NCBI GenBank assembly: GCA_963714055.1
Contig: OY970227.1
Coordinates: forward strand, 499,079-563,078
Direction: 5' to 3'
Source of the DNA: an uncultured Acidimicrobiia bacterium
Lineage (GTDB): Bacteria; Actinomycetota; Acidimicrobiia; Spongiisociales; UBA5794
Length of the DNA stretch: 64,000 nt
Part shown: piece after piece, positions 9,651 through 53,964 of the stretch
Layout of the letters: every line of letters starts with the position of its first letter
How positions within the stretch are numbered: the first letter of the stretch is position 1
Program-made: the position numbers and the translations under genes
The notes under the pieces: generated by a model
Told to the model about the DNA's origin: nothing
What the model saw: the letters and a program-made list of their open reading frames with translations, nothing else
Database searches by the model: none

Positions 9651-9651
9651 T

Positions 9652-9723
9652 GGGCGTTGACGGGCTCGAACCGCCGACCTCTTCCTTGTAAGGGAAGCGC
9701 TCTTCCAGCTGAGCTAAACGCCC
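9652..9723 (-). tRNA. tRNA-Val (anticodon TAC)
   Basis: Reverse complement GGGCGTTTAGCTCAGCTGGAAGAGCGCTTCCCTTACAAGGAAGAGGTCGGCGGTTCGAGCCCGTCAACGCCC folds as a cloverleaf. It has a 7-bp acceptor stem, GCTC/GAGC D-stem, anticodon loop CTTACAA and T-loop TTCGAGC. CCA is not encoded. Confidence 0.85.
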
Positions 9724-44587: not shown

Positions 44588-47300
44588 TCAGCTCGACGGT
44601 GCCGGTTTCGCCGGTCTGCGCCGAGTCGGGTGCGCTGTCGATGGTGAGGTTGCCTCCCGACGTCGCCGGGACGATCCAGGTGGACAGGTCGTAGGCGGCT
44701 TCGCCGTCGATGCGTGTCCCACCCGTGGACGTACACGGTCCACACTCCAGGCACCGGATCGAAGATGGTCACTTCCTCGTCGGTGCCGGCGTTGAAGCTG
44801 GCGCCCCGGAAGACTCCGGCGGGGTCGACGCACGTACACGTCGAGGTCGGTCCCGGGATCGGCGGCTTCGGGTGGGATGGCGAGGTGGAACAACGCCGTC
44901 TCGGCCGCAAGGTCGAACTCATGGATGGTGCTGTACCCGTCGTCGGGGTCGAAGCCTTGGTCAGGGTCCTGCACGACGGTGTCGGAGATGACCGTTGCCG
45001 TCCCCAGGCCGTACGCGGCGGCGGTGTATTCGCCGGTGTACCCGAAACGCACCTCGAAGGATGCGCTGCCGTCGGTGCCCGAGCCGGCGACCTCGGTCGG
45101 GGCGTCGAACAGGAGGGTGTTGACGGCGATCGGGCTGTACACCTCGTAGCGGCCGGCGATCCAGGTCAACGACCCGGTGCTCCACTCGCCGGGGTTGCCG
45201 GTCCCGTCGTTGGTGACGGTCACCTCGTAGGTGACCGAGTCACCCGGGTCGACCGTGAACGAGCTCGGTGCCACATCGACGTCGAATCCGGCCGGGGCGT
45301 CGATCGAGACCCGGTAGGTGGCCCGCCGCCCGAGGTTGGTGACGGTACGCGCCACGGTCTCGGTGTCGACGAGCTCGGCGATGCCGATCGACGGATAGTT
45401 GAGGTTGCTCGGATCGGTGGGGTAACCCAGCGTCTCGAGCTCGGCGCAGGTGGCCGCCGGGTCGGCGAACACTTCGGGGCCTTCGGTGCACAGGAACCCG
45501 AGGTAGTCGTTGAACCCGGCGTCGTACACCAGCCCGGGCTGGAACATCGAACCCGGGATCGAAGGCATACCGGGGTCGACGTGCCCCGACCCGGTGGCGA
45601 ACGGTCCGGCCGGGGTGACCCGGTCGTTGTCGACCACGTCGTGGCGCGCCGTGGTCATCACCGCGGAACGGGCCGCCGCCGGGCTCCAGTCGGGGTGCCG
45701 TTGCTTGAGCAGGGCGTACACCCCGGCGATGTGCGGCGTCGACATCGAAGTGCCCGGCGATCGCCTGGAACATCTCGCCGGCCCCGGCATAGGGAGAGTG
45801 AGCCGCCAGGATCTGGATGCCCGGTGCGGTGATGTCCGGCTTGATGATGTCGGGTGCTTCGAGATTCGGGCCGCGAGACGAGAACCTGGTGATCGACGGT
45901 GCCGAAGGCCACGACGTGGTGGTGTTCTGCACCACCAGTCGCGCCGTCGGGTCCGCGGCAGTCGCGATGTACTCCTTGATGGCGAGTCCCGGCGTGTGGT
46001 CGACGTGCACCCCAGGCACCGAGTGGCTGTCGGTGAACAGGTTGCCGTCGTCGGTCGTGTCATAGATGATGATCCCGACCCCCCCGGCCTCGAGCACCGC
46101 CTGGCTCCACTCGCATCGACAGCCGATCCCGCGGCGGCACAGCACGATCGCCCCCCCGACCACGTCCGGATCGAGCGGACCCGCTGTGCAGTCTTCGCTG
46201 CCGGCGTCAGCCGAGTCGACGAGTGGGGAGGTTGCCAACCCCCTGGGTGAGCGAGGCGCCCAGGTAGGTCTCCCCGTTGCCGAGGACGATCCGACCAGGG
46301 AAGAACCGGCGCTGGGTGCTCGCCGCCACCGTGGTGAGCCACGGCATCGTTCCGCCGACGGTGCCAGGCCAGTCTGCCTTCGTTGCCTGGCGAAGCGGCA
46401 ATGAACACGCCGGCGTCGGCGGCGAACAGGAAGGCGATGCTCTCGACGCCGGTCAGGTTGCCGGAACCGATCGAGTAGTTGATGACGTCGACACCGTCGC
46501 CAACCGCGGTGTCGATGGCCACCGCCAGGTCGGAACTGAAGGACATACCGAAGTCCCCGCCGGCCGTCTTGTAGGCGATGATGTGCGCTCGGGGGGCGAT
46601 GCCGCTGACCGTGCCCAGGTCACGGCCCAAGACCTCCGCGGGGACGCTTCGGTTGCCGGCCGCCGTGCTCGCCGTGTGCGAGCCGTGGCCGTCGTGATCG
46701 CGAGCCGAATCGAACTCGACATCCTCGATCCCGATGACGGCCTCATAGGTCGCCATGACCTGACGAGCGCCCAGCAGCTTGTCGTTGCACTCGAACGCGA
46801 CGTCGGCCGGGTTGTGAGCCGTGTTGCCGAACTCGCACGGGATGTCCGGGTTGACCCCGGCGGGGTAGGTGTAGGAGCCGTCGTCGGCGAAGCTCGGATG
46901 CTCGGGCCAGATCCCTGAGTCGATGACGCCCACCACGACACCGCGACCGTCGATGCCGCGACCCCACGCCTCGCCTCGACCGTCGAGGCCGAGAAGTCGG
47001 GGCTGGAGTCGGTCGTCAGGTAGCGCTCGACATCGGGCACCACCCGCGCCACTCCGGGCTGGGCAGCCAGGGCCACCGCCTCGTCGTGCGACGCCACGAC
47101 GGCGAACCCGTTGACCACATTGGTCAGATCCGAGACCCTGGCGCCCTCCGCCACTCCCGGCGTCGTCATCACCTGGCGATGGCTGGCGCGGATCCGTCCC
47201 GGTCGGCACGGGCCCATTGCCGTCCGCAGGCCTTCTTGCGCGGACGCTGGAGGTTCATCGGTCCCTCCACGATCAGGAGACGGTGAATTCGTGGCGCATG
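44588..47300 (-). pseudogene. subtilisin-like serine protease (S8) with I9 propeptide, PA domain and C-terminal beta domain; >=4 frameshifts
   Basis: Asp region GVVVGVIDSGIWPEHPSF, His region HGSHTAST, PA insert and Ser region GTSMSTPHIAGVYALLKQRHPDW. These segments and the I9 propeptide fall in at least four different frames. Confidence 0.65.
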
Positions 47301-48110
47301 CCGAGCACCATGTGTGGGGTGCCGTCGGCGTTGGGCATGAAGCAGACCAGTGCGTAGTTGCCGGGTTCGACGTCGAAGGTGACCGCTTCCTCGTCACCCC
47401 CGGGAGCGGCGAGGTTGGTCGCCCACTCCCTGTCGACGGTGCCCTCTTCGCCGTCGGCCTGTATCGCCTCGTCGAGCGTCACGCCCGCGGCGAGCTTGAC
47501 GACGACCATCTCGTGGGTCTCGTCGCCGTCGTTGGTGAGCACGAACGAGGTGCGGCCGGTGGCGACGTCACCGATGTGGAAGGCGTAGTCGGTGGCGCTC
47601 ACGTCGACGCGGACGGCGTCCTGCTCGATCTCGCGGGTCGAGCCCTCGGGCAGCGCGGCCTCCTCGGAGTGGGGGATCCCGCAGGTCTCCTCTTCGAAGG
47701 CGTCGATTTCGGCGATGGCGGCTTCGATGTCGTCGTCGGCGAGGACCTTGAAGGACTCGACGAGATCGCCTCCGCTGGTGATCAGCGGCTTCGGTGACCT
47801 CGTTCACCGCGTCGGCGATCGGCTCGGGGGCGAGCTGTTGGTAGCGCTCCAGTTGCTCGACGCTCGGGAACCCCTCCAGCTCGAACAGCTCGGTCACCAG
47901 CGCACACAGCTCGCCGCTCGCTTCCGCTGCACCACCCGTCGTCGACGCGGGCGTGGCGACCGTTGTCCCGGCGGCAGTCTCGGCTGTCGCGCCATCGGGG
48001 GCCGTGGTCACCGGTGCCCCCGCGGCCGCCGACTCGGTGTCGTCGCCCCCGCAGCCGGCGAGCGCCACCACGAGCGCCGCAGCGACCGCAATCGATAGTC
48101 TCCTGTGCAT
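47273..48110 (-). CDS. lipoprotein with C-terminal cupredoxin (type-1 copper) domain; apparent frameshift (~47800)
   Basis: Lipobox LVVALAGCGG. The C-terminal domain carries a Cys-His-Met copper site (YALVCFMPNADGTPHMVLGM). The linker lies in the adjacent frame. Confidence 0.55.
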
Positions 48111-48124
48111 CTCCGTGTCCTTTC

Positions 48125-48230
48125 GGCCGTGGTAACTCGACCTGTCCGGAGCTTGCCCCACGCCTCTTCCCGCTGTCACGGGGTGGGGCTCTCGTCTGCG
48201 TCGGGAAGCGACCCGGGATTCAGCCCGGCC
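48125..48230 (-). promoter_or_regulatory. conserved ~80-nt nested-palindrome 5' leader element, copy A (upstream of the cupredoxin lipoprotein gene)
   Basis: ~88% identical over ~75 nt to 52100-52200. The RNA sense reads CUUCCCGA.GCAGACG...GCCCCACCCCGUGACAGCGGGAAGAGGCGUGGGGCAAGCUCCGGACAGGUCGAG. It contains a 7-bp stem CUUCCCG/CGGGAAG and GCCCCAC/GUGGGGC, which could pair as a pseudoknot. It ends ~15-25 nt before the RBS. Confidence 0.45.
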
Positions 48231-48908
48231 TCAGGGTTGGCCGGGGCGTTGACCCAATCCGGCCTGGCGGGCGGCGACGATGGCGTGGGCTCGGTCGGAC
48301 AGGTGCAGCTTGGCGAAGATGTTGGAGATGTGGTTGCTCACCGTCTTGCCCGAGATGTAGAGACGGGAGGCGATGGCGGCGTTGTCGTGCCCGGTGGCGA
48401 TGAGGTCGAGGACCTCGCGTTCGCGGTCGGTGAGCTCGGGGAAAGGGCTCACCGACATCCCCTTGCCGTCGGCGTGCTGGAAGAAGACGGTGAGCCGGCG
48501 GGCGATGGCCGGCCCGAACAGCGCCTCTCCGGCGGCCACGGCCCGGATGGTGCGCAACACCTCGGCGGTGTCGGCGCCCTTGAGGATGTAGCCGTGGGCG
48601 CCGGCGCACATGGCGGCGAACAGGGAGTCGTCGTCCTCGAGCATGGTGAGCATCACGACCTCGACGTCAGGGTGGTCGGCGCGGACCCGGCGGGTGGCCT
48701 CGATGCCGTTCATGTCCGTCATCTGGATGTCCATCAGGACCACGTCGGGCGCCGTCTCCGCGATCCGGGCCAGTGCCTCGGCCCCGGTCCCGGCCTCGCC
48801 CACCACCTCGGTGTCATCGGCGGCGGTCAGCAACGCGGTCAGTCCTTCGCGAAACAGCGTGTGATCGTCGACCACCAGCACGCGCAGCGGACGGGTCCGC
48901 TCAGCCAT
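48231..48908 (-). CDS. LuxR/NarL-family response regulator
   Basis: Start MAERTRPLRVLVVDDH. REC plus LuxR HTH (LTDREREVLDLIATGHDNAAIASRLYISGKTVSNHISNIFAKL). Confidence 0.85.
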   Translation of the reverse strand: MAERTRPLRVLVVDDHTLFREGLTALLTAADDTEVVGEAGTGAEALARIAETAPDVVLMDIQMTDMNGIEATRRVRADHPDVEVVMLTMLEDDDSLFAAMCAGAHGYILKGADTAEVLRTIRAVAAGEALFGPAIARRLTVFFQHADGKGMSVSPFPELTDREREVLDLIATGHDNAAIASRLYISGKTVSNHISNIFAKLHLSDRAHAIVAARQAGLGQRPGQP

Positions 48909-51106
48909 GCGGCACCTCGACCGCACTCGGGACCGGGCGGTCCGGTGGCGCCGGCTCCAGGCCCGTAGCACTCTCGACCGCTGCCCGACCGGGAAGGGTC
49001 GCCATGGGGAGGGTGGCGGAGACTTCGGTGCCGGCGCCGTCCAGGCGGGATACCCGGAGGGTTCCACCAAGCTCCTCGGCTCGTTCCCGCATCGATGTCA
49101 TGCCGACACCCGGCTGGGTGACGGCGCGGACACCGACACCGTCGTCGACGATCCGAATGAGCAATGCGCCATCGGCCAACTCCAGCGAGATCCTGCAGAT
49201 CGACGCACCGGCGTGGCGCGCCACGTTGGTGACGGCCTCGCGGGCGATGCGGTAGGCGGCTACCTCCACGGCGGCGGGGAGATCGCCCAGCGGGTCCGGA
49301 TGAGTGGTCACCTCCACTCGCAGGTCGTTCGAGCGGTCGAGCTGCCCGCCGTGCGCCGCCAGGGCTCCCACCAGGCCGAGCTCGTCCAGGGCGGGTGGTC
49401 GCAGCTCGTACACCAACCGGCGGATGTCTGCCACCAGCTCCTGGTTCTGCCGCTTGAGCGACGTCACCAGCTGGGCGACGTCAGGTCGATTGTCGGCGAG
49501 CAGGGCGAGCACGGCGTCGAGCCGGAAGGTCTGGCTGGCCAGTGACGGGCCGAGACCGTCGTGCAGGTCGCGGCGTAGTCGCCGCCGTTCCTCCTCGCGG
49601 GCCAGCACGAGCTGTTCGCGGGATCGCTGCAGCGCCTGGGTGAGCCGCATCGCATGGGCCAGGCCGCCGGCCTGGTGGGCCACGTCGTCGAGGAGGCGGC
49701 GATCGTCGGCGTGGAGGCCCTCGTGGGCGGATCGTGGGGCCACCACCAATCGGCCGACCAGTTCCCCTTGGTGACGTAGCTCGATCGTCTCCACGTTGTC
49801 ACCGAGATGGCCTACGAAGGCCCGGGTCTCCCAGGTCCCGTCTTGCTCCAGCTCGAACGCCACCCCGGGCAGCTTGAGCGCCTCGGCGACGGTCTGGACC
49901 AGGCTGTGGAGCGTGGCGTCCGGTTCGCCGGACTGCGCCAGCAGGCGACCCAGCTCCGACAGCACCGCATAGGGGTCGTCGCGCCGACCGAACATCACCC
50001 GGTTCACCACCCTCTGCACCCGGTTGCGCACCGGGTTGAACGCCACCGCCACGATGGCGGCGGCCAGCAGCGACAGGCCCAGGTTCCCGCCGGTGGGCAC
50101 CAGGGCGCCGACACCCACCACCACCGCGACGTAGGCCGCCGCCACCAGGGCGGTCATGGTCCCGTAGACGACGGTGCGGTTGATCACCAGGTCGACGTCG
50201 TAGAGCCGGTAGCGCAGCACGCCGAGGCCCAGAGCGATCACCAGGAAGAGACCGGAGGCAGACGTGAGGGCATCGAGGGGGGCGGTCAACCCGAGGTCGA
50301 CGCCCTCCCCCTCCACCAGGACGGTGTCGACCAGTACCAGGGCCTCGAGAAAGGCCACCAGGCCGAAGGCGTAGAGCACCCACTTGAGACGCTGGCGAAG
50401 ATCGGTGCCGGAGGTGCGCCACCGCGTGATCAAGCTACCGACCCCGACCACCACCGACGCCATCATCACCAGCAACCAGACGGTGTTGACGACTTCCTCA
50501 GGCACCGGCAGGATCCCGGTCGGGTTGGACGGTGGCGAAGCCACCTCCAGGAACCGGTTGGTCAAGGGCCGCTCGGCTCAGCATGAAGGCGGTGATGAGG
50601 ACCACCCACGCCCAAGCCACCACCGGTACCGCCCGGCGCCACCGGCCCACAGAATGCCCGTCGGGGAACAGAGCCGGGAGCAACAACAGGGCGAATACGA
50701 AGGTGATCATCCACAGGTCCTGCACCCACTCGGCCACACGACCGAACGGAAGACCCGGAGCCACGTACCAGGCGTACTCGGCGTACATGCCGGCCAGCTC
50801 GATGACGCTGATCAGCACGCCGGCCGCCAGCATCAACCACCCGTAACGCTGCGGACGGCCTCGCAGCACCACGACGCCACCCAGCATGGTCAAGAAGAGG
50901 AGGGTGAGCGAGGGGACGCGGTCGCTGGGGAAGAACGCGGGACCGACACCGGGCACGGCGGCGGCGCGAAGTCCCGACATCAAGGCCCATGCGCCGATCG
51001 CGCACCCCGCCGCCACCGCTGACGCCGCGGCCACGATGAGCCAGTGCCAACGTCGCAAGGCCGGTGATGGCCCCGATAGTGGGGACGCGGCCGCCATCAC
51101 CGTCAC
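48901..51106 (-). CDS. multi-TM sensor histidine kinase (HisKA_3/HATPase_c, GAF-like region) with apparent frameshift (~50530)
   Basis: H-box LRRDLHDGLGPSLAS and the ATPase motifs IVDDGVGV...GVGMTSMRERA are present. An additional N-terminal multi-TM module (50498-51106) lies in the adjacent frame. Confidence 0.7.
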
Positions 51107-51130
51107 CTCCTCCGCGACGCTCCACGAACC

Positions 51131-52087
51131 CTACGCAGCGCCGGCTGCGGGCGGCGGTAGCAATCGGTCATGCCACCGGCTCGACGTGACCAGCTGCCAT
51201 GAGGGGGGACCCGGCTGGAGTTTCGCGCCGGGACCGACCGACGGTGGCCACGGCGAAGGCCGCGCCCCAGAGGATCGCCGCCGCCGCCCAGAAGGTCGAC
51301 GCCGCCGACGCCACGTCGGGGTACACCAGGGAGTGCAGTCCGTACTCGATGGATCCCGAGCGCGGCGATCCAGGCGGGCAGACGCCACCCGGGATGGTCG
51401 CTCGACCCGAGCAGCCCGCACCAAAGGACGACCACTGCCAGCAGGGCTGCGGTGGCCCAGTGCTCCATCCCGGCGTGGGGGTCGCCGGCGGCGTTGCGCC
51501 ATTGCAGCAACGCGTGGTCGACGGCGAACACCAGCCAGGGAACCGCCGCTAAGCCCACCAGAGCACCCATCGTGACGATCCGTCCTGGGGCACCGGACGA
51601 GGTCCTGCGCCCGGGGGTGGAGCAGCGCCAGGAGCAGCACCGGCACCAGCAGCGTGACCTCCTCCACCAGCCACTCACCCAGGGTCCCGCTCAATCCATA
51701 GACGACGGCACCCGCCACGACGATGCCGACCGCCTGCAGCATCGGCGCCACCCGTCGCTCCGGCTTGCGCAGCTGCACCACGACGCCCAGGACAAGTGCC
51801 CAGGCGATGATGCCGGCGATGTTCATGTGGCCGCGGTGGATCTCGTCGGCGGCGGGCAGGTCGTCGATGAGCGACATCAACGTTTCCCAGGGCAGCCACA
51901 TGAACACCACTTCCGTGACGGCGAAGATCATGAAGATCGACACCAGCAGGGAGGTCAGCACCGCCAGCACGCGGAAGGCGATCCGCCGCGCCCGAGAGCC
52001 ACCCTCTTCCGGGACCTCCCCCGCCTCGATGGGGGTGCGGCTCGCCGAAGCTCCCCCGAGCGCCTCTACGTCCCTGGTGTTGGTCAT
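51131..52087 (-). CDS. hypothetical polytopic membrane protein (first gene of the LuxR two-component operon), frame-disrupted near its 3' half
   Basis: Start MTNTRDVEAL with a GGAGGAA RBS, preceded directly by leader copy B. TM segments appear in two frames (FRVLAVLTSLLVSIFMIFAV..., ...LVGLAAVPWLVFAV...). Confidence 0.45.
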   Translation of the reverse strand: MTNTRDVEALGGASASRTPIEAGEVPEEGGSRARRIAFRVLAVLTSLLVSIFMIFAVTEVVFMWLPWETLMSLIDDLPAADEIHRGHMNIAGIIAWALVLGVVVQLRKPERRVAPMLQAVGIVVAGAVVYGLSGTLGEWLVEEVTLLVPVLLLALLHPRAQDLVRCPRTDRHDGCSGGLSGGSLAGVRRRPRVAAMAQRRRRPPRRDGALGHRSPAGSGRPLVRAARVERPSRVASARLDRRARDPSSTDCTPWCTPTWRRRRRPSGRRRRSSGARPSPWPPSVGPGAKLQPGPPSWQLVTSSRWHDRLLPPPAAGAA

Positions 52088-52099
52088 AGCCGTTCCTCC

Positions 52100-52200
52100 G
52101 GATCTCGACCTGGCCGGAGCTTGCCCCACCCCTCTTCCCGTTGTCACGGGGCAGGGCCCCCGTCTGCCTCGGGAAGAGACCAGGAAGAGCCGGACTCCGG
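52100..52200 (-). promoter_or_regulatory. conserved nested-palindrome 5' leader element, copy B
   Basis: See copy A. The same CUUCCCG...CGGGAAG / GCCC..CCCCGUGACA / GUGGGGCAAGCUCCGG..CAGGUCGAG architecture ends ~12 nt before the RBS of the 52087 gene. Confidence 0.45.
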
Positions 52201-52248
52201 TGACGCTTCGGCGAATCCAGGCTGTGAATCCAGGGAGAGGTCGTCGCG

Positions 52249-53964
52249 CTACCCGGCGATGGCGGAGGACATGATGCCGGGGATGTGGCGGGGCGAGCCG
52301 TCGGTGGCGTACCGGACCAGCCGGCGGGCGGTGGTCAGCCCGGTCCGGTTGGTCGGGAACCACGGTGGCCGGACCGCCAGGTTGAGCCCGCCCCCCTTCC
52401 AGGAGCGCTGGGCCAGGAAGAACGGTCCGGTGACCACCGCCTTCTCCGGGTTGTCGAACATGAGGGCGTTGTGCACCACGCCTGCACCGCTCCCAATGGC
52501 GTCACGCCGGTTGCCCGGGTAGGCGCCCCATGGGAGCCGCGGCTGGCCGAACCCGAACCCGGTCCAGGTGTTGACGGCGACGCAGCCGTAGCGGAGGTCG
52601 GTCACCGCCGAGGTGAACCGCTCCCCCAGCTTCGATGCCGTCTCCGGATGGATGAGGAGGTTCGCCCCCAGGGTGCCGTGTAGCCGCTGGTTGGCGAAGT
52701 GGACGGCGGCGGCGAGGAAGTCGGCCGGGTCGCGGTGTGGGAGCCGGGTGGAGGCGAGCACGGAGGCGAACACCTCCTCGGTGAACACCGGGTGCGGGTC
52801 TCCGGCGGGAACGTTGCGCAGGTGGGCCCGGGGAGGCTCCCCGCCGAGCAACGCCACGTCGCCGTGGCTGTCGATGGCCGCGTCGCAGCGGTCCTCGGCG
52901 CCCGGGTAGTAGGCGGAGCGGGCGGGGAGGGCTGCGATGGTCTGCTCGATCCGGTCGACGAAGGCGTCGGTGCGGTCCCACCCGTCGGGGAGGATCATCA
53001 CCTGGGCGGCGATGCAGTTGAAGCCGGCGTTCTGCAACTTGGCGGTGGCGACCAGCTCGGCCTGGAAGCTGAGGTCGGCGTCAGTCCACGGCCCGGGGAC
53101 GACGATGAGCGGGCTCACCCCGCCGAGCTCGCTGCTGATCGGCTTGGCGAGCAGCGGCTGGTCGGCTGCGCGCCGGCGACGGCCCTCCTCGCCCGGGCCG
53201 AACACGATCGTGTTGAACGTCTCTTCGCTGCCGGTGATGTGCACGGTGTCCACACCGGGGTGCGCCACAAGGCCGGCGCCGACGTCACCCCCGCCGTACA
53301 CGATGCGCAGGAAGCCGGGCTCGATCAGCGGCTCGAACATCCTCTCGAAGATGGCGGCCAGGTAGTCGAGCACCGGGCTCATCTTGACCACCACCACCTG
53401 GCCTTCGACGAACAGCTTGTAGAGCGCGTCGAGCGCCGGGATGGCGGAGATGTTGCCGGCGCCGAGCACCACACAGACCTTGCCCTCCGGCTCCGGCTCC
53501 CGGTAGAAGGCGCCGGTCTGGCTGCCCAGCGGGGTGGCCCGGTGCTCGGGGCCGATCCACACCTCGCCCGTGTACCCCGAGAAGAGCAGCCGCTCGGTGA
53601 GCCCGACCGGGACCGAGTTCACCAGGATGCGCCCACCGGGCCCGGGCGACACCCAGTCAGGGTCGAACGTCGTCTCGCCGCGCCACAGCCGGGCTATCGA
53701 CTGGTGCAGGGCGGCAACAGTGAGGAGCGTGGTGTACGGGCCTCCCAGCCACTCCTCACCTGCGGTCGGGCTGTCCACCGGGATCCCCTTGGCGACCGCC
53801 CCGGCGGCACCCCAGGCGTCGGCGACCGCCCCGATCCGCCGGCGGAGGTCGCTCAGGATGCTCAGCCTGCGGGGGTGGGCGAGGCGGGCCCACTCGTCCT
53901 TGTGCGCCGTCAGCACGTCGACCGCTTCGTCGAGCTGGGTCGGGGTGCTGGCACGGGGAGTCAC
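52249..53964 (-). CDS. aldehyde dehydrogenase family protein
   Basis: 571 aa with an ALDH-like Rossmann/catalytic domain layout (VVLGAGNISAIPALD, catalytic-Cys context FNCIAAQ). Confidence 0.7.
   Translation of the reverse strand: MTPRASTPTQLDEAVDVLTAHKDEWARLAHPRRLSILSDLRRRIGAVADAWGAAGAVAKGIPVDSPTAGEEWLGGPYTTLLTVAALHQSIARLWRGETTFDPDWVSPGPGGRILVNSVPVGLTERLLFSGYTGEVWIGPEHRATPLGSQTGAFYREPEPEGKVCVVLGAGNISAIPALDALYKLFVEGQVVVVKMSPVLDYLAAIFERMFEPLIEPGFLRIVYGGGDVGAGLVAHPGVDTVHITGSEETFNTIVFGPGEEGRRRRAADQPLLAKPISSELGGVSPLIVVPGPWTDADLSFQAELVATAKLQNAGFNCIAAQVMILPDGWDRTDAFVDRIEQTIAALPARSAYYPGAEDRCDAAIDSHGDVALLGGEPPRAHLRNVPAGDPHPVFTEEVFASVLASTRLPHRDPADFLAAAVHFANQRLHGTLGANLLIHPETASKLGERFTSAVTDLRYGCVAVNTWTGFGFGQPRLPWGAYPGNRRDAIGSGAGVVHNALMFDNPEKAVVTGPFFLAQRSWKGGGLNLAVRPPWFPTNRTGLTTARRLVRYATDGSPRHIPGIMSSAIAG

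Follow-up and report, generated by a model that had tools for sequence, protein, structure and literature searches.

The 64,000-nt window analyzed here, a stretch of contig OY970227.1 from an uncultured Acidimicrobiia bacterium, contains two nearly identical 73-nt elements at the genes of a two-component system. Both are on the minus strand, as are all the window genes named below. Copy B (52104-52176) heads an operon encoding a multi-transmembrane membrane protein (51131-52086), a histidine kinase with a multi-transmembrane N-terminus followed by HisKA_3 and HATPase_c domains (48901-51106), and a response regulator of the NarL/LuxR family with Response_reg and GerE domains (48231-48908), the presumed operator binder. 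Copy A (48136-48208) begins 22 nt past the response regulator stop codon at 48231, and it precedes a gene (47273-48110) for a lipoprotein whose signal peptide ends in ...LAGC and whose C-terminal domain is of the plastocyanin/azurin (cupredoxin) type, PF00127. Domain searches supplied the kinase, response regulator and lipoprotein assignments. Only 17 nt separate the 3' end of copy B from the ATG (52086) of the membrane-protein gene, and 25 nt separate copy A from the ATG (48110) of the lipoprotein gene.

The two copies match at 64 of 73 positions with no indels; their flanks are unalike. A degenerate 73-nt pattern matched the 64-kb window at these two sites only, with an expectation of 0 from shuffled sequence (n=100). 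An earlier note on this DNA had described the pair as near-identical minus-strand elements directly upstream of two genes, and that description is accurate, as are the features it had pointed out within them: a CTTCCCG/CGGGAAG inverted repeat and a complementarity between element positions 20-29 and 45-54. Its interpretation, that the elements are more probably cis-regulatory leader RNAs, or else long response-regulator operators, than core promoters, is the subject of what follows.

We searched for relatives using the response regulator as anchor, because it is intact and located between copies A and B, and fetched 80 loci from species-representative genomes. At 80% and 78% identity, the closest relatives of the regulator come from one Nitriliruptoraceae and one Acidimicrobiaceae metagenome-assembled genome (MAG), respectively; many from Chloroflexota come next, at 55-71%. 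An nhmmer query built from the two window copies only gave marginal matches (E 0.005 to 8), on the gene strand throughout and lying either 2.4-5.6 kb upstream of the response regulator gene or, in L016, directly after it. A regular expression and a second hidden Markov model recovered 23 instances in 21 loci. Together with the two window copies these form a 25-instance alignment (A2) with members from Chloroflexota, Nitriliruptoraceae and Acidimicrobiaceae, gapless save for single-base indels in two instances.

The conserved columns of this alignment are TTCCCG at positions 2-7, RGG at 16-18, CCYC at 26-29, ATGACA at 30-35, CGGGA at 37-41, and then T54, A55 and T59; conservation is absent beyond position 59. 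The family consensus reads (CGGGAC-N5/6-)TTCCCG-N8-CGGGAC-N4-GTCCC-ATGACA-N-CGGGA(C/A). We also scanned metagenomes with a pattern covering positions 2-41 only, so that the downstream hexamer was not included; it matched at least 120 contigs, and 114 distinct instances were analyzed. Metagenome figures given here are among the matches listed. The 5' 41 nt of the element are conserved at the same gene-proximal, co-oriented place in three phyla-level groups and in more than 114 instances from metagenomes.

The conserved columns spell out a promoter. The ATGACA columns are the -35 hexamer, in which T, G and A never vary and 24 of the 25 instances have C. Positions 54-59 are the -10 hexamer, reading TATTGT, TAGACT, TAGAGT, TATCAT, TAATCT or TAAACT in Chloroflexota copies, CATCCT and CAGGAT in the Nitriliruptoraceae MAG, and CAAGCT in the window. 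All 25 instances have xAxxxT at 16-18 nt after (A/G)TGAC(A/G), 20 of them at 18 nt and one at 16 nt, and TAxxxT occurs at that spacing in 20 of 25; background frequencies in the same loci are 6.8% for xAxxxT and 0.7% for TAxxxT. In the metagenome set, where the hexamer had played no part in the pattern, xAxxxT was found at 17-18 nt in 111 of 114 instances and TAxxxT in 94. Information content there reaches 0.87 bits at position 54, 1.50 at 55 and 1.49 at 59, and is below 0.25 bits at every later position. High-GC metagenome instances often carry CAnnnT or GAnnnT, as in the window. A promoter scan of L031 placed ATGACA-18-TAGAGT at the motif. An extracytoplasmic function (ECF) sigma promoter, with GGAAC or GGGAA as -35 and GTC as -10, was considered and rejected by eye: its spacings were inconsistent across instances, and the conserved downstream hexamer is TAnnnT.

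In both window copies CAAGCT sits 18 nt after GTGACA, itself a 5/6 match to TTGACA, and keeps the key positions A2 and T6. For copy B the -35 is at 52142-52147 and the -10 at 52118-52123, aligning with the TAnnnT of relatives; for copy A they are at 48174-48179 and 48150-48155, the latter placed by both the 25-instance and the metagenome alignments. The absence of an embedded sigma70-like -10 had been an argument against a core promoter. There is such a -10, and the conservation of both hexamers in relatives and in metagenome instances refutes the argument. It was overlooked because CAAGCT matches TATAAT at only 2 of 6 positions. Hexamer geometry predicts a transcription start at position ~66, an A after C in both copies and 7 nt past the -10 in copy B. 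This corresponds to 52111 for copy B, with a leader of 25 nt that includes a GGAGGA Shine-Dalgarno sequence, and to 48143 for copy A, with a leader of 33 nt. All recognized instances are co-oriented with a downstream gene start; the co-directional open reading frame begins 58-140 nt past the motif start in the regulator-anchored loci and mostly 64-145 nt past it in metagenomes.

One metagenome instance departs from this anatomy. L102, whose motif is at 393 in minus-strand orientation, carries two tandem copies of the module 'CCCnTGACAnCGGGA' (...CCCGTGACAGCGGGAagccgCCCCATGACAACGGGAttcca) and is one of the three instances with no -10 at the expected spacing past the first TGAC. Slippage or duplication of the -35 module may account for the tandem.

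These positions bear directly on the leader-RNA interpretation, under which the gene-sense transcript would form a P1 stem (CUUCCCG/CGGGAAG) and a pseudoknot between positions 20-29 and 45-54, together with an anti-Shine-Dalgarno CUCCGG at 58-63. A predicted start at ~66 leaves every one of these upstream of the transcript, and all conserved positions are at or upstream of the -10. The complementarities are real: copy B offers a perfect 10-bp helix, two of whose pairs are G-U and workable only in gene-sense RNA. Moreover copy A begins no more than 22 nt from the response regulator stop, with no terminator predicted between, so that read-through RNA could include it. The stems themselves were compared across the 25 instances. 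P1 is 78.9% paired, and none of its five core pairs shows a double-sided change; both arms are kept as sequence, without compensatory change, and not as pairing. The pseudoknot helix is 45.6% paired; it exceeded slid controls in percentage paired only and was not clearly above shuffles on any measure. The inner hairpin paired at control level. Symmetric positions 19/26 form an A-C mismatch in 34 of 114 metagenome instances. Sequence is conserved at the orthologous loci, and the proposed stems show no covariation there.

Other tests agree. Single-sequence folds of both copies and both strands gave minimum free energy z-scores of only -1.0 to -1.4, and the minimum-energy structures of A and B differ. 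Rfam 15 yielded no match to the element, whether the whole window was searched at the gathering threshold, which returned only a minus-strand tRNA gene at 9651-9723 (68.8 bits), or 47950-52400 at E<=10. The 3' arm of the pseudoknot and CUCCGG are unconserved outside this genome, and the genes downstream of the motif are functionally mixed, as described below. Known riboswitches and leader RNAs in Rfam resemble the element in lying just 5' of a gene and in containing nested inverted repeats; they are unlike it in that the element falls outside the predicted transcript, precedes heterogeneous genes, and has neither covariation nor an Rfam match. A riboswitch or attenuator leader, with or without its pseudoknot-like fold, is accordingly very improbable.

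The resemblance between the two window copies has a second source, recent common descent. Over positions 1-41 the window pair is identical at 35 of 41 positions, similar to the 27-33 of 41 of other within-genome pairs. Over positions 42-73, which comprise the spacer, the -10, the discriminator and the first 8 transcribed nt, the window pair is identical at 30 of 32 positions, against 7-16 of 32 for other within-genome pairs and an all-pairs mean of 10.4. Sequence comparison thus points to recent duplication or conversion of a promoter cassette of ~80 bp in this lineage. Since the similarity of the 3' half is lineage-specific, the proposed pseudoknot arm and anti-Shine-Dalgarno sequence are better understood as a legacy of duplication than as a conserved functional module.

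Could the whole element then be a recent segmental duplication with no function, or a small mobile repeat resembling a miniature inverted-repeat transposable element (MITE) or a repetitive extragenic palindrome (REP)? The near-identity of positions 42-73 does mean that part of the similarity reflects descent instead of constraint. The 5' 41 nt, by contrast, are conserved, gene-proximal and co-oriented across three phyla-level groups; just two copies occur in 64 kb; and neither terminal inverted repeats nor target-site duplications were seen. A recent duplication that includes coding sequence had been raised in the earlier note as an alternative: the cassette does appear recently duplicated, and coding sequence lies outside the repeat. 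Copy number and the fixed gene-proximal orientation lead us to reject a MITE or other mobile repeat, and we regard the broader notion of a functionless repeat as extremely improbable.

Around the -35 the conserved columns form inverted-repeat half-sites at family-typical spacing, with CGGGAC-N4-GTCCC between TTCCCG and CGGGA. The central box GGGAC-N4-GTCCC is centered at position 22.5, equivalent to -43.5 from the predicted start. In copy B the distal half-site TTCCCG (52170-52175, at ~-64 to -59) falls in columns near-invariant over the 25 instances; the central palindromic box reads GGGGG-CCCT-GCCCC (52148-52161, center ~-43.5), aligning with the family consensus (C)GGGAC-N4-GTCCC and with the geometry of the DosR box at hspX (PMC13486717); and the proximal half-site CGGGAA lies within the 18-bp spacer (52135-52140, at ~-29 to -24). 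The full copy B cassette aligns with the 23 orthologous instances. In copy A the distal half-site TTCCCG is at 48202-48207, the central box GAGAG-CCCC-ACCCC at 48180-48193, and the proximal half-site CGGGAA, again in the spacer, at 48167-48172; alignment conservation identifies both half-sites. Relative to the consensus the central boxes of the window are degenerate, GGGGG-N4-GCCCC in B and GAGAG-N4-ACCCC in A.

Symmetric positions 20/25 of the box alternate in the metagenome instances between C-G (42) and G-C (22), and C25 is present in 22 of the 23 instances with G20. Such alternation is as expected of symmetric half-site variants in a palindrome bound by a dimer. It suggests two operator subtypes, which may correlate with variants of the response regulator recognition helix, a helix that reads KTVSNH in the window regulator.

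The 22 nt between the response regulator stop and copy A (48209-48230, minus strand), GGCCGGGCTGAATCCCGGGTC, hold a short inverted repeat (CCGGG/CCCGG) and lack a T-tract. Terminator prediction over this interval found none, and the repeat may be a degenerate distal operator half-site instead of a terminator.

The motif is linked to kinase and response regulator genes. Motif-bearing loci among those anchored on the response regulator number 22, each with a regulator of at least 56% identity to that of the window and none with lower identity. The metagenome contigs were selected by pattern and so provide a separate view: for 22 listed instances with at least 4.5 kb of downstream sequence, kinase and response regulator homologs are downstream on the same strand in 13 and immediately upstream in two more. 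The other seven are unlinked to a two-component system; two of these also have no -10 and are probably chance matches. This linkage supports the alternative that had been offered with a hedge in the earlier note, a long response-regulator operator, and its tightness favors the cognate response regulator as binder.

Copy A is not peculiar in its placement. The motif is found right after the response regulator stop, with the regulator start at -660 to -700, in at least seven metagenome contigs. Copies so placed are at L016:6767-6830 and in metagenome contigs L091, L105, L123, L129, L139, L146 and L155. Recurrence in unrelated lineages indicates that the architecture of copy A is a common design, despite copy A being a recent duplicate of B. 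Motifs were also noted as back-to-back pairs on opposite strands, ~70-150 bp apart, forming divergent promoters (L001:775-944, L021:1697-1961 and L117:809-1034).

The window regulator is a protein of the NarL family. As a full protein its best solved relatives are VraR (4e-44) and DevR (3c3w; 2e-39), and its DNA-binding domain is closest to those of LiaR and VraR; it scores under all NCBIfam equivalog cut-offs. Taking promoter anatomy, conservation and linkage together, we consider it highly likely that each element is a housekeeping promoter of the sigma-A/sigma-70 type joined to a composite operator at which the adjacent LiaR/VraR/DosR-like response regulator of the NarL family binds. Phosphorylated dimers of the regulator would bind the central box, with cooperative binding at the half-sites on either side, and would recruit sigma-A RNA polymerase in the manner of DosR, LiaR and VraR. 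At copy B the regulator would thereby switch on its own operon, a positive autoregulation, and at copy A it would induce the downstream cupredoxin lipoprotein gene. A -10 with only 2/6 matches combined with an 18-bp spacer fits an activator-dependent promoter.

Several observations count against this interpretation. A generic promoter scan of the window, run with a 4/6 consensus rule, found nothing at either copy; the -10 is weak, and the scan misses the promoter for the reason given above, the 2/6 match of CAAGCT. Copy A has a degenerate central box, with A at element position 17 where 22 of the 25 instances have G. The motif was undetected in eight regulator-anchored loci whose upstream flank is 4.5 kb or longer and whose regulator identity is 56% or higher. 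The binder could be another factor, encoded elsewhere. Finally, the sign of regulation is uncertain, because the half-sites flank a near-consensus, near-invariant -35 and one of them is in the spacer, an arrangement that suits a repressor too.

This last point can be developed into an alternative in which the promoter is as described and the operator serves to repress, with the response regulator or an unrelated factor occluding the -35 and spacer, or in which a non-adjacent regulator binds. The 5/6 match of the near-invariant -35, and the decent TAnnnT -10 of the relatives, might allow the promoter to fire unaided, and the half-sites on either side of the -35, including CGGGA in the spacer at ~-29 to -25, would be well placed to block it. 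On the other side, the closest characterized regulators, DosR, LiaR and VraR, are activators whose boxes lie at the -35 or overlap it, and their autoregulation is positive (PMC13486717, PMC3029386, PMC4447274), the -10 in the window is poor, and the kinase and regulator linkage favors the cognate response regulator. Repression, or a binder from another locus, is in our judgment unlikely, though less so than the leader-RNA and repeat explanations. Binding and activation by the cognate regulator therefore remain our preferred interpretation.

Within that interpretation a more ambitious version may be entertained: that the elements represent the undescribed regulon and operator of a NarL-family two-component system widespread in Chloroflexota and Actinomycetota, in which half-sites clamp the -35 and the spacer, uniformly 18 bp long, contains one of them. 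Activation would then involve the spacer, by re-phasing or distortion somewhat like that of MerR-type regulators, and would not be simple class II recruitment; the targets would be exported redox or metal proteins (cupredoxin, Cu/Zn superoxide dismutase, cytochrome c and DUF4399 lipoproteins). We offer this as speculation, and as a whole it is unlikely.

The genes downstream of the motif are mixed, mostly encoding exported or membrane proteins. The commonest first gene is for a DUF4399 lipoprotein, found in 17 of 90 listed metagenome instances (L086, L094, L101, L110, L111, L026 and others); DUF4399 lipoproteins may be a core target of the regulon. Other products are membrane proteins of unknown function, including orthologs of the first gene of the window operon (which follow the motif in L002, L001, L135 and L174), cytochromes c and Cu/Zn superoxide dismutase, as well as SnoaL-like proteins, O-methyltransferases and one DUF4397/fasciclin protein. 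A mixture of this kind is more in keeping with a single transcription factor's regulon than with a ligand-specific riboswitch. The sole hint of copper or other metals as signal, which the earlier reading had taken up, is the nature of some of the target proteins.

The window genes themselves showed an irregularity. At least four successive genes on the minus strand from 44588 to 52086 are frame-disrupted, as seen for the membrane protein and kinase by tblastn with their L002 orthologs. The frame changes near 51555-51575 in the membrane-protein gene and between 50574 and 50696 in the kinase gene. The lipoprotein/cupredoxin gene lies in two pieces, 47568-48110 and 47273-47602, and an S8 peptidase (44588-47209) is distributed across several frames. 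The pattern points to indel errors in the assembly, such as arise in unpolished long reads, and not to a run of pseudogenes.

Comparison with characterized systems places the element in familiar company. At hspX the DosR box is centered at -43.5, and DosR, reading GGGACT/TGTCCC there, contacts both the alpha subunit and region 4 of sigma-A (PMC13486717). Dev boxes lie close together, the proximal one overlapping the -35, and devRS is an autoregulated operon (PMC3029386). The likeness to the DosR/DevR system of Mycobacterium tuberculosis (hspX, Rv3134c-devRS) extends to the NarL-family response regulator, the palindrome of GGGAC-N4-GTCCC type, its position at ~-43.5 next to the -35, the close packing of additional sites and, as proposed here, autoregulation of the regulator's own operon. 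There are also differences. The sensor here is a multi-transmembrane HisKA_3 kinase, whereas that of DosR is a cytoplasmic GAF/haem kinase, and the DNA-binding domain of the regulator is nearer to LiaR and VraR. The -35 here is near-consensus and near-invariant, in contrast to the suboptimal -35 of hspX, and a conserved half-site lies inside the spacer. Targets here are exported and membrane proteins, not dormancy genes.

LiaFSR/VraTSR systems, which are three-component systems for cell-envelope stress, share with the window operon the order of membrane protein, histidine kinase and NarL-type response regulator; the best matches of the regulator in the PDB are VraR and LiaR, though its scores are under the equivalog cut-offs, and in both cases the targets are mostly envelope proteins. 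LiaR autoregulates liaFSR through a 25-bp motif with an inverted repeat, one of 25-28-bp motifs upstream of its own operon (PMC4447274), and the window operon likewise has an inverted-repeat motif upstream. The first gene product here, however, has no LiaF/DUF2154 domain; it matched no family in Pfam or NCBIfam, and membership in a LiaF-type family was ruled out on that basis. The kinase has a long multi-transmembrane N-terminus where those systems have a two-transmembrane intramembrane sensor, the operator is GGGAC/GTCCC plus TTCCCG instead of the CesR/LiaR-type TCAGHCTnnAGDCTGA, and the hosts are Chloroflexota and Actinomycetota, not Firmicutes.

As judged from sequence, then, the kind of element is already well known: an autoregulated two-component system promoter with a DosR/LiaR-like operator. 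The motif itself is undescribed as far as our literature search reached; a search for TTCCCG/CGGGAA together with response regulators returned primer-sequence matches only, and no published description of the motif was found.

The analysis removes a false riboswitch candidate and puts in its place a promoter/operator model of ~60 bp for an uncharacterized two-component system. It also carries a caution for annotation: nested palindromes 5' of genes in high-GC genomes can be operators around degenerate CAnnnT -10 hexamers that consensus scans miss. The two-component system is common in soil Chloroflexota and Actinomycetota, and the element is widespread in soil metagenomes. The ~60 bp model can be used to predict the regulon of this system in any genome, with targets so far consisting of envelope, redox and copper-type proteins.

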